Source of the DNA: Escherichia coli
GTDB lineage: Bacteria; Pseudomonadota; Gammaproteobacteria; Enterobacterales; Enterobacteriaceae
Reading direction: 5' to 3' (one strand)
NCBI RefSeq assembly: GCF_003334785.1
Contig: NZ_QOWV01000084.1
Length of the DNA: 551 nt
Both the position numbers and the translations under genes were made by a program. Below, piece by piece: positions 1-551 of this stretch. Positions within the stretch are counted from its first letter, which is position 1, and each line of letters opens with the position of its first letter. The notes under the pieces were generated by a model. It was given only the letters and a program-made list of their open reading frames with translations. It was not told the DNA's origin and ran no database searches.

Positions 1-4
1 AGTT

Positions 5-40
5 GTAGGCCTGATAAGACGCGACAGCGTCGCATCAGGC
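5..40 (-). repeat. REP/PU, Z-type-like, copy 1
   Basis: Minus-strand read is GCCTGATGCGACGCTGTCGCGTCTTATCAGGCCTAC: two 14-nt arms complementary at 12 of 14 positions (mismatches at arm positions 8-9), a 4-nt loop and a CTAC tail. It matches the recalled E. coli Z-type PU consensus apart from about one loop base. Confidence 0.85.
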
Positions 41-47
41 ATTGATT

Positions 48-81
48 GCCGGATGCGGCACAAGTGCCTTATCCGGCCTAC
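48..81 (+). repeat. REP/PU, Y-type-like, copy 1
   Basis: Plus-strand GCCGGATGCGGCACAAGTGCCTTATCCGGCCTAC: 14-nt arms GCCGGATGCGGCAC and GTGCCTTATCCGGC complementary at 12 of 14 positions, followed by a CTAC tail. The arms match the recalled E. coli Y-type PU consensus; the loop region differs from that recalled consensus. Confidence 0.85.
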
Positions 82-96
82 AGGTCGGCAATAGTT

Positions 97-132
97 GTAG
101 GCCTGATAAGACGCGACAGCGTCGCATCAGGC
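97..132 (-). repeat. REP/PU, Z-type-like, copy 2
   Basis: Identical in sequence to the PU at 5-40, offset by 92 bp. Confidence 0.85.
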
Positions 133-139
133 ATTGATT

Positions 140-173
140 GCCGGATGCGGCACAAGTGCCTTATCCGGCCTAC
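140..173 (+). repeat. REP/PU, Y-type-like, copy 2
   Basis: Identical in sequence to the PU at 48-81, offset by 92 bp. Confidence 0.85.
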
Positions 174-188
174 AGGTCGGCAACAGTT

Positions 189-224
189 GTAGGCCTGATA
201 AGACGCGACAGCGTCGCATCAGGC
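189..224 (-). repeat. REP/PU, Z-type-like, copy 3
   Basis: Identical in sequence to the PU at 5-40, offset by 184 bp. Confidence 0.85.
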
Positions 225-231
225 ATTGATT

Positions 232-265
232 GCCGGATGCGGCACAAGTGCCTTATCCGGCCTAC
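232..265 (+). repeat. REP/PU, Y-type-like, copy 3
   Basis: Identical in sequence to the PU at 48-81, offset by 184 bp. Confidence 0.85.
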
Positions 266-280
266 AGGTCGGCAATAGTT

Positions 281-316
281 GTAGGCCTGATAAGACGCGA
301 CAGCGTCGCATCAGGC
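281..316 (-). repeat. REP/PU, Z-type-like, copy 4
   Basis: Identical in sequence to the PU at 5-40, offset by 276 bp. Confidence 0.85.
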
Positions 317-323
317 ATTGATT

Positions 324-357
324 GCCGGATGCGGCACAAGTGCCTTATCCGGCCTAC
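324..357 (+). repeat. REP/PU, Y-type-like, copy 4
   Basis: Identical in sequence to the PU at 48-81, offset by 276 bp. Confidence 0.85.
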
Positions 358-372
358 AGGTCGGCAACAGTT

Positions 373-408
373 GTAGGCCTGATAAGACGCGACAGCGTCG
401 CATCAGGC
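373..408 (-). repeat. REP/PU, Z-type-like, copy 5
   Basis: Identical in sequence to the PU at 5-40, offset by 368 bp. Confidence 0.85.
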
Positions 409-415
409 ATTGATT

Positions 416-449
416 GCCGGATGCGGCACAAGTGCCTTATCCGGCCTAC
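416..449 (+). repeat. REP/PU, Y-type-like, copy 5
   Basis: Identical in sequence to the PU at 48-81, offset by 368 bp. Confidence 0.85.
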
Positions 450-464
450 AGGTCGGCAATAGTT

Positions 465-500
465 GTAGGCCTGATAAGACGCGACAGCGTCGCATCAGGC
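465..500 (-). repeat. REP/PU, Z-type-like, copy 6
   Basis: Identical in sequence to the PU at 5-40, offset by 460 bp. Confidence 0.85.
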
Positions 501-507
501 ATTGATT

Positions 508-541
508 GCCGGATGCGGCACAAGTGCCTTATCCGGCCTAC
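508..541 (+). repeat. REP/PU, Y-type-like, copy 6
   Basis: Identical in sequence to the PU at 48-81, offset by 460 bp; only the downstream linker is cut by the window end. Confidence 0.85.
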
Positions 542-551
542 AGGTCGGCAA

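Follow-up and report, generated by a model that had tools for sequence, protein, structure and literature searches.

All close matches to the window (the entire 551-nucleotide stretch of Escherichia coli DNA analyzed here) among 5,426 complete E. coli genomes fall in a single place, the spacer between rhaA and rhaD of the rhaBAD operon, and the + strand of the window is the mRNA sense strand of that operon. At this locus an array of palindromic units (PUs) of the form Y-(l-Z2-S-Y)n begins 5 nt past the stop codon of rhaA and extends to ~43 nt short of the start codon of rhaD, with the first Y PU, immediately behind the rhaA stop, being kept in every E. coli allele inspected. Both the kind of array and its locus are already known, as REP299 and through a listing among the BIME-2 elements, and the window comes from the interior of an allele of this described REP299 BIME-2 that is both long and rare. 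The gene context, i.e., an array lying inside an operon just 5 nt after a stop codon, was absent from the original prediction made for this DNA. A fucO-like gene found in two strains sits between rhaD and rhaM and not between rhaA and rhaD. In the literature searched, no paper was found that treats rhaA, rhaD and REP together.

Tandem Repeats Finder describes positions 1–551 as a single array with a period of 92, 6.0 copies, 99% matches and no indels (score 1088), and a direct-repeat finder recovers 275-nt copies spaced 92 bp apart at 99–100% identity. By regex decomposition, the 92-bp unit consists of an inverted Z2 PU (36 nt), the linker ATTGATT, a direct Y PU (34 nt) and AGGTCGGCAAYAGTT, giving exactly 12 PUs in the window. 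The six Z2-type PUs, all GTAGGCCTGATAAGACGCGACAGCGTCGCATCAGGC and all inverted, such that the GTAG end comes first on the + strand, occupy 5–40, 97–132, 189–224, 281–316, 373–408 and 465–500 on the − strand; the six Y-type PUs, all GCCGGATGCGGCACAAGTGCCTTATCCGGCCTAC and direct, occupy 48–81, 140–173, 232–265, 324–357, 416–449 and 508–541 on the + strand and belong to the variant Y1, whose apical stem is GGCAC/GTGCC. Each Z2-Y pair is joined head to head by the 7-nt ATTGATT in the S-type position (41–47, 133–139, 225–231, 317–323, 409–415 and 501–507, + strand), whereas the tail-to-tail linkers are of 15 nt and have the form AGGTCGGCAA[T/C]AGTT. The window is cut inside the array at both edges: its first four nucleotides (AGTT, 1–4, + strand) are the end of a long linker, in the register of the one at 82–96, and its last ten (AGGTCGGCAA, 542–551, + strand) are the start of another, cut ahead of the variable base. 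Thus, the 12 alternating PUs and the two linkers that had been read from the sequence, the longer one with its pyrimidine position, are exactly as described and leave no unique sequence outside the PU/linker scheme, while the six 92-bp units kept their period but amount to 5.99 and not six whole units.

The same prediction held the copies to be identical, and this stands at the level of 99–100% identity but overlooks how the sole variable base of the window, located in the long linker, alternates: it is T at positions 92, 276 and 460 and C at 184 and 368. In terms of the unit-variant map, the tail-to-tail linkers on the + strand alternate between l1 (AGGTCGGCAATAGTT, with T at 92, at 82–96; again at 266–280 and 450–464) and l2 (AGGTCGGCAACAGTT, with C at 184, at 174–188; again at 358–372). 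This strict alternation makes 184 bp the true period of the array; were the sites independent, such an alternation would arise by chance about once in 16, with only five sites to go by.

The content of the window beyond the repeats themselves is sparse. The open reading frames are merely generated by the repeats and do not exceed 48 aa in any frame, so that coding potential was dismissed; neither a sigma-70 promoter nor an intrinsic terminator was found inside the array, nor was an obvious unstructured C-rich entry site for Rho seen in the window. In CRISPR arrays, unique spacers of about 26–72 nt lie between constant repeats. Such an identity is ruled out here, as the linkers are constant and only 7 and 15 nt long and the repeats are of two types, placed alternately and in opposite orientation. 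A phage origin was likewise rejected, with a 23-nt pattern from the linker finding no match in viral_contigs. That pattern also has no exact match in the GTDB species representatives, where those of Escherichia either lack this form of the linker or were not reached, and a 115-nt pattern from the window recovered one metagenome contig, carrying a 5-PU rhaA-rhaD array.

Each PU of the window folds as a hairpin under DNA parameters, as calculated for the first Z2 (−12.8 kcal/mol, z = −5.4) and the first Y (−10.3 kcal/mol, z = −4.1); both hairpins contain internal mismatches, and GTAG/CTAC stands at the foot of every PU. As RNA, a 184-nt stretch of the sense strand reaches −100.8 kcal/mol against −61.5 ± 4.3 for shuffled sequences (z = −9.1). 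The Y and Z2 PUs are identical at 30/34 and 34/36 positions, respectively, to units of the same length in REP325, an element made of Y and Z2 units (PMC4550694). BIME-2 elements are defined by z2 and y units in tandem with a short S linker (PMC3333891), and the window displays Y and Z2 PUs in alternating orientation, with an inverted Z2, the 7-nt linker, a direct Y and the 15-nt linker repeated six times at a period of 92; no long IHF-binding L motif, the longest linker being of 15 nt; and an extragenic position, which in all genomes inspected falls between the stop of rhaA and the start of rhaD. Linkers of BIME-2 elements are known to differ in length and sequence, with s, l or r motifs between the tails (PMC3333891). 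In line with the kinship to REP325, each Z2-S-Y pair matches the Rfam family naRNA4 (RF02564), which represents the REP325 unit, with six matches of 76.6 bits on the − strand against a gathering score of 59.5, while the + (mRNA-sense) strand attains 53.2 bits and stays under that score. The inverted REP doublets, the GTAG tetranucleotide and the stem mismatch of the REPIN-RAYT system are also present in the units. The window is, therefore, a BIME-2 array built of Y and Z2 PUs, as had been anticipated on the basis of its palindromes; the identity to the REP325 units, the naRNA4 matches and the listing of the K-12 allele as BIME-2 all concur, and the two checks proposed at the time, for family and locus and for array length across strains, when run on E. 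coli genomes yielded rhaA-rhaD for all close matches, REP325 Y/Z2 relatives for the palindromes and a PU cluster varying in number by 92-bp steps at the orthologous site.

Across complete genomes, the rhaA-rhaD spacer forms a ladder in steps of 92 bp (82, 174, 266, 358, 450 ... 1002 bp), corresponding to values of n from 0 to 10 and to PU numbers from 1 (the 82-bp spacer) to 21 (1002 bp). Hence, the expectation of a site variable in copy number between strains is borne out. With 12 PUs in the window and the array continuing past both of its edges, the full array must have at least 15, i.e., n of at least 7. This exceeds the 2–12 PUs given for BIME-2 elements in the literature (PMC1187871), a range that was catalogued in one strain, K-12, and is not a defining trait of the class; the placement of the array at the large end of the class was correct but understated. 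With at least 15 PUs, the array is also a rare long allele: none of 117 sampled genomes has more than 9 PUs at this site, and of 5,219 matching records, only some 30 carry arrays of at least 5.4 units.

The exact window sequence is absent from all 5,426 complete E. coli genomes (best match 99.3%), so its order of units lacks independent confirmation and could in part be a product of assembly, with the units of a shorter and more heterogeneous rhaA-rhaD array having been miscounted or homogenized through the use of short reads or through poor polishing. Such an explanation can draw on the long arrays inspected elsewhere, which are mosaics of Y1–Y5 and l1–l5 where the window has only Y1 with l1 and l2, and on the TOP10 and XL10-Gold assemblies, whose stray array fragments in junk-like regions indicate that this repeat does get misassembled. 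It nonetheless appears quite improbable: arrays of 13–21 PUs are present in many independent complete assemblies, strain 219 provides a case in which a multi-unit block was duplicated exactly, K-12 possesses the Y1-l1/Y1-l2 dimer as a plausible seed, and a preserved alternating SNP is not a normal product of repeat collapse.

The unit-variant maps show these arrays growing as blocks of one, two or four units are duplicated in tandem. Thus, the array of strain 219 is an exact doubling of the 4-unit, 368-bp block of K-12, and three duplications of single units set L009 and L003 apart. The window fits the amplification of a K-12-like two-unit block, and its l1/l2 alternation would be the trace left when a 184-bp block of two units, of the kind found midway along the K-12 array, was duplicated again and again. 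Units would be gained and lost as 92-bp units misalign during recombination or through replication slippage between them, possibly aided by the REP-associated transposase TnpA-REP, which cleaves and recombines BIMEs in vitro; amplification of BIMEs has been proposed in published models. The homogeneity of the copies had been attributed either to recent amplification or to gene conversion. The T/C alternation, together with the block structure of other alleles, favors the first in the form of recent multi-unit duplication over homogenization by conversion, which is less well supported, as it would tend to erase the alternation.

As for what the array does, it probably serves as a hairpin barrier that stabilizes the rhaBA mRNA and attenuates rhaD, in addition to providing a gyrase site. 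In the rhaBAD transcript, it would fold into a train of very stable hairpins that could block 3'-to-5' exonucleases, thereby stabilizing the upstream rhaB-rhaA message, and that could cause a partial, partly Rho-dependent attenuation lowering the expression of rhaD and rhaM; polarity would be expected to strengthen with more units. The first hairpin lies less than 15 nt from the rhaA stop, a placement that has been suggested to lower the translation of the gene upstream, and at the level of DNA, the Y units would act as gyrase cleavage sites, which have been experimentally mapped for the K-12 allele. For the RNA-level effects, we infer from REP325 and other BIMEs. When REP325 was deleted from the yjdMN operon, the gene downstream rose about 8–10-fold and the upstream mRNA fell, and the element gives rise to a ladder of hairpin-ended transcripts with partial sensitivity to bicyclomycin, although the same study stresses that REP effects depend on context (10.64898/2026.03.23.713779). 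The absence from the window of a terminator-like site and of an obvious Rho entry site is a point against this role.

A serious competitor, which we rate as falling somewhat short of an even chance, is that the long array has no function at all: unequal recombination, slippage or the action of TnpA-REP on a selfish repeat would have left it behind as a by-product, neutral or slightly harmful, that the permissive rhaA-rhaD spacer tolerates. The rarity of long alleles described above is explained by neutral or mildly deleterious expansion no less readily than by adaptive tuning, and many lineages thrive with 1 PU in an 82-bp spacer or, in another allele of 241 bp, with a different repeat. Moreover, allele size is stable within clones (174 bp in all sampled rows of O157:H7; 450 bp in K-12 derivatives, with one of 449), marking the site as a lineage marker and not a fast switch, which is unlike what a tuned or rapidly switching locus would present; the in vitro activity of TnpA-REP and the amplification models, too, are in keeping with a by-product. 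Against this stand the retention of the first Y PU in every E. coli allele inspected and the independent acquisition of hairpin repeats in the same spacer by several genera. Among the matches listed in a RhaA-based comparison of the locus, which included no Escherichia coli or Salmonella and one 'Escherichia sp.' (ESNIH1), unrelated hairpin repeats occupy the rhaA-rhaD spacer in Citrobacter, Enterobacter, Pseudocitrobacter, Pseudescherichia and Superficieibacter, with ~8 units in tandem in the last of these, and the spacer measures just 7–10 bp in more distant Enterobacterales. Further, the 12-PU REP325 in a comparable operon position strongly affects its neighbors, and effects of this magnitude make it unlikely that a longer array would be without a phenotype. 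Even where a long array is a by-product, a lone Y PU or a short BIME could still be important.

The gyrase sites could alternatively be the main point of the array, with strong transcription-independent gyrase sites, and possibly a site for Pol I, HU or a cruciform, managing supercoiling near the strongly inducible rhaBAD operon or contributing to chromosome organization. The rhaA-rhaD element of K-12 appears in Table DS3 of Sutormin et al. 2019 (PMC6379681) as a 401-bp BIME-2, with 4 gyrase cleavage sites in the ciprofloxacin set (Cfx), 2 persisting under rifampicin (RifCfx), 1 in Micro and 0 in Oxo (PMC6379681). More generally, BIME-2s are enriched in gyrase cleavage, with Y being cut more often than Z2 and the signal rising when transcription is blocked, and the units of the window match the naRNA4/REP325 family, which has been proposed to act with HU. 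Yet, cleavage by gyrase speaks of binding and not of a physiological role; REP325 was without effect on nucleoid compaction or long-range contacts and has been reassigned to local RNA-level regulation (10.64898/2026.03.23.713779); and the orientation resembling naRNA4 runs antisense to rhaBAD, the sense match being the one below the gathering score. A mainly DNA-level role is, accordingly, rather doubtful, and one such role would be compatible with the RNA-level role.

Returning to the hairpin barrier, a stronger version of it would have the rhaA-rhaD spacer selected for such a barrier, with the number of BIME-2 units acting as a heritable stepwise rheostat of RhaB/RhaA relative to RhaD/RhaM. 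This draws on the alleles of 1–21 PUs, the unrelated hairpin repeats of five genera and the tight 7–10 bp coupling of the genes in distant Enterobacterales; we consider it unlikely, but were it true, the window would represent an extreme setting. Taken as a whole, a long rhaA-rhaD BIME-2 allele that would have grown by duplication and would act chiefly through its hairpins is the best explanation, and one in which we place considerable confidence. The window itself is of little consequence, being a textbook enterobacterial repeat at a catalogued locus. The locus is of wider interest in that the 12-PU ceiling for BIME-2 is specific to K-12 while arrays here reach 21 PUs, that the unit-variant maps offer a clean record of BIME array growth, and that the operon housing the array is the one driven by the rhaBAD promoter, which is in wide use. 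Should PU number alter rhaD expression or the stability of the rhaBA mRNA, as the findings on REP325 suggest for a comparable array, the natural alleles would furnish a ready series for the dose dependence of REP polarity.

Among known systems, BIME-1 elements (Y + Z1 with a long IHF-binding L linker; RIB/RIP) likewise have inverted PUs outside genes but occur as single copies where the window is tandemly repeated; its second PU is of the long Z2 type, its head-to-head linker measures 7 nt, and the IHF consensus WATCAANNNNTTR has no match on either strand, so that a BIME-1 or RIB identity is ruled out. With the REPIN/RAYT system (TnpA-REP, yafM), the window shares inverted REP doublets, the GTAG/CTAC tetranucleotide and the stem mismatch, these being substrate features required by TnpA-REP; a RAYT gene is, however, absent in or near the window, and the duplications are attributable to ordinary recombination or slippage as well. 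REP325, the BIME-2 of yjdM-yjdN and source of naRNA1-6, comes closer: it is a tandem Y/Z2 array of 12 PUs, intra-operonic and close behind the upstream stop, with PUs of identical length and 88–94% identity, and it offers the best experimental model in its dual capacity as a stabilizer of upstream mRNA and a partial Rho-dependent attenuator. It differs from the window in locus, in period (100 versus 92) and in linkers (13 and 17 nt versus 7 and 15 nt), which rules it out as the source, and its naRNA4-sense orientation corresponds to the − strand of the window, antisense to rhaBAD. The closest counterpart is REP299a-i of K-12 MG1655, a predicted RAYT-associated REPIN inside rhaBAD and within the 15-nt limit of the upstream gene. 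It has the same rhaA-rhaD locus and strand relative to rhaBAD, an identical Z2 PU, S linker ATTGATT and Y1 PU, and l1/l2 linkers in the same alternation. REP299a-i has 9 PUs (4.4 units in a 450-bp spacer), including one Y5 variant, and its end units (Y4, l3) diverge. The window, by contrast, counts 12 PUs, exclusively of the Y1 type, within an array of at least 15, and looks like the internal two-unit block of the K-12 element amplified at least three times.

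The 551 bases of the window constitute, in their entirety, a single tandem array with a period of 92, 6.0 copies, 99% matches and no indels as detected by Tandem Repeats Finder, with which a direct-repeat search is concordant. Pattern decomposition resolves this array into six identical inverted Z-type palindromic units (PUs) of 36 nt (Z2) and six identical direct Y-type PUs of 34 nt, linked head-to-head by ATTGATT (S) and tail-to-tail by the long linker AGGTCGGCAA[T/C]AGTT. The description of 12 alternating Y and Z PUs in the original prediction is thus accurate, with repeat finders and decomposition in agreement. 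The window opens with the last 4 nt of one long linker and stops after the first 10 nt of another, and must therefore have been excised from a larger array. At its single variable base (92, 184, 276, 368 and 460), T and C alternate as T,C,T,C,T, which makes the true period 184 bp. Every PU folds into a stable hairpin, and for a 184-nt stretch the folding of either strand is far stronger than that of shuffled sequences (z = -9.1 and -8.5). The ORFs are short and repeat-generated only, and no sigma-70-like promoter, intrinsic-terminator-like site or IHF consensus was found in the window.

When the window was searched by megablast against 5,426 complete E. coli genomes, nearly all of them gave matches because REPs are ubiquitous; all inspected high-identity full-length matches, however, fall in the gap between rhaA and rhaD of the rhaBAD operon, with the coding strand corresponding to the window plus strand. 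The top match is strain 100181 (99.3%), and none of the 5,426 genomes contains an exact match. The 450-bp rhaA-rhaD spacer of K-12 MG1655 carries the same array with 9 PUs, sharing identical Z2, ATTGATT and Y1 (the window's Y variant) and likewise alternating both long-linker variants, and the sole metagenome contig in which a diagnostic 115-nt segment of the unit occurs likewise has it between rhaA and rhaD. The array starts 5 nt past the rhaA TAA codon, ends ~43 nt ahead of the rhaD ATG and belongs to the rhaBAD transcript. The K-12 allele has been named REP299a-i, described as lying <=15 nt from the upstream gene and as the sole in-operon cluster among eight stress-responsive REP clusters, and is tabulated in the Topo-seq data set of PMC6379681 as a 401-bp BIME-2 with 4, 2, 1 and 0 gyrase cleavage sites in four conditions. 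Element and class are therefore already known: the window, which displays the testable hallmarks of a BIME-2, is a rare long allele of REP299.

E. coli TOP10 (NZ_CP080620.1; 3001-3276 of the extracted locus, near the record end) has a 276-bp array fragment, 99.7% identical to the window, away from rhaA-rhaD among tRNA genes, copies of the RtT sRNA and RHS/IS pseudogenes that are truncated; it looks like mis-assembled repeat debris, and XL10-Gold also has a stray fragment. Further, in some E. coli (Z1323PEC0008, at 2379-3527 of its locus, and strain 7_12_30A, row H99) a lactaldehyde reductase gene annotated as fucO interrupts the interval from rhaD to rhaM, and the rhaA-rhaD spacer is the minimal 82 bp. 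Lactaldehyde is the product of RhaD, and the insertion is therefore metabolically sensible.

Tandem BIME copies at a single locus are reported to be well conserved while differing in number between strains (PMC3333891). A spacer census, using the joined rhaA and rhaD flanks as query and the match span as spacer length, covered 117 genomes, the query strain not counted, drawn at even intervals from the match ranking in two samples. Spacers of 82/92 bp (1 PU) occur in 26 genomes, 159-184 bp (3 PUs) in 18, 266/276 bp (5 PUs) in 16, 358/368 bp (7 PUs) in 4 and 449-460 bp (9 PUs) in 33, with none above this last class among the 117; a further 20 have a 241-bp spacer in which a single Y PU precedes a GC-rich hairpin repeat of another kind. 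Longer arrays are confined to roughly the top 31 rows of the window megablast, those inspected having 5.4, 6.4, 7.4, 8.4, 9.4 or 10.4 units, i.e., 11 to 21 PUs. Since the window needs a Y before it and a Z2-S-Y after it, its own array has at least 7 units and at least 15 PUs in a spacer of at least 726 bp. The figure of 'two to twelve' PUs per BIME given in PMC1187871 applies to K-12 and sets no upper limit. Thus, the predicted variability between strains is borne out, from 1 to 21 PUs, and the placement at the large end of the class was right; the interpretation as a whole stands once amended for a longer array, a 184-bp super-period and a position inside an operon. Within clones, allele size is constant in the samples: 174 bp in every O157:H7 row, 450 bp in K-12 derivatives (449 in one) and 266 bp in the one ST131 row. 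The site differs between lineages and is no fast switch.

When each PU and linker variant is coded, the inspected arrays prove to be mosaics built from few variants (Y1-Y5, l1-l5 and one Z2 deletion variant) that differ by whole-unit events. The 17-PU array of strain 219 (3002-3771 of its locus) is an exact tandem doubling of the four-unit 368-bp block of K-12; rows H10-H11, H16-H22, H24-H25 and H28-H29 of the megablast have the same 597-bp match span, span alone being compared. Three single-unit duplications separate locus L009 (15 PUs) from L003 and L008 (21 PUs), and all three have as second PU a Z2 with a 3-nt apical-stem deletion (GACGCGACATCGC; L003 2932-2964), which makes them one allele lineage despite their different lengths. 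The end units (Y4, l3) are unlike the internal ones, as expected if unequal exchange homogenises the interior only. The window has the formula (Z2 S Y1 l1)(Z2 S Y1 l2) x 3, the pattern expected if the internal Y1-l1/Y1-l2 dimer of a K-12-like array had been duplicated several times over. Of the two processes originally proposed, recent amplification gains support from the block duplications and the T/C alternation and is favoured over homogenisation by gene conversion, the alternation resting on just five sites with a chance probability of ~1/16 if these were independent. With low probability, the precise succession of units could stem from the assembly. Possible pathways of growth are homologous unequal exchange, slippage and TnpA-REP-mediated recombination, the last demonstrated in vitro (PMC3333891). 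Among the Y variants (window 59-66 against, e.g., K-12 end units: Y1 GGCACAAGTGCC, Y2 GGCACGAGTGCC, Y3 GGCACGAGCGCC, Y4 GGCGCGAGCGCC), one apical stem pair is compensatory, A-T in Y1/Y2 and G-C in Y4, with Y3 a mismatched intermediate or recombinant, a pattern compatible with the hairpin being under constraint.

Among the matches listed for RhaA-anchored loci from species-representative genomes, the rhaA-rhaD gap measures 7-10 bp in the more distant Serratia, Yersinia, Pantoea, Erwinia, Dickeya and Pectobacterium and in Pasteurellaceae, and 36-467 bp in Enterobacteriaceae, where species-specific palindromic repeats are frequent. At ~3757-3930 of each locus (L014-L016, L017, L022, L025, L033), Citrobacter has two Y-like REPs, Pseudescherichia two REPs, and Enterobacter and Pseudocitrobacter CCCTCTCCC/GGGAGAGGG hairpins. 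Superficieibacter electus BP-1 has a 467-bp spacer (L024 3757-4226) with one Y-like PU and then approximately eight tandem 53-bp units, each bearing one GCAGGCCCGGTAAGCGCAGCGCCACCGGGC hairpin in the same orientation—a tandem hairpin array of independent origin in this very intercistronic gap. The 241-bp spacer of E. coli JNE23-001 (1401-1641 of its locus), a type present in ~20/117 sampled genomes, follows its Y PU with two GC-rich CCCTCTCCC...GGGAGAGGGTTAGGGTGAGGGG hairpins of the family filling the Enterobacter and Pseudocitrobacter spacers; we take these to resemble the E. coli 'boxC' repeats. Hairpin repeats, of different kinds across genera, have thus settled in this gap again and again, which could reflect permissiveness or selection for an intercistronic barrier. 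On the basis of this recurrence one may entertain, as a rather unlikely reading, that the spacer is selected as a hairpin barrier whose unit number acts as a rheostat of RhaB/RhaA versus RhaD/RhaM.

As for function, the array would most likely, by analogy, be a protector of rhaBA mRNA and an attenuator of rhaD/rhaM. It would shield rhaBA mRNA from 3' exonucleases and let less read-through reach rhaD and rhaM, polarity being expected to rise with unit number, and by the published stop-codon-proximity rule its first hairpin may also damp RhaA translation. That long alleles are rare would be just as compatible with an expansion that is neutral or mildly deleterious. At the DNA level, Y units are gyrase cleavage sites, as mapped in K-12 (PMC6379681). 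The mRNA-level role is modelled on REP325, the closest experimental analogue, also a BIME-2, with 12 PUs, that separates two genes of a single operon (yjdM-yjdN): according to a preprint (10.64898/2026.03.23.713779), its deletion raises the downstream gene ~8-10-fold and lowers the upstream mRNA, and it yields a ladder of hairpin-ended transcripts with attenuation that is partly bicyclomycin-sensitive. REP325 itself was rejected as the window element, its period being 100 and its linkers 13 and 17 nt. The Rfam family naRNA4, built on REP325 units, matches all six Z2-S-Y pairs on the minus strand at 76.6 bits (gathering score 59.5); on the sense strand it reaches 53.2 bits, below that score. 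The Y and Z2 of REP325 have the same lengths as the window PUs and are identical to them at 30/34 and 34/36 positions.
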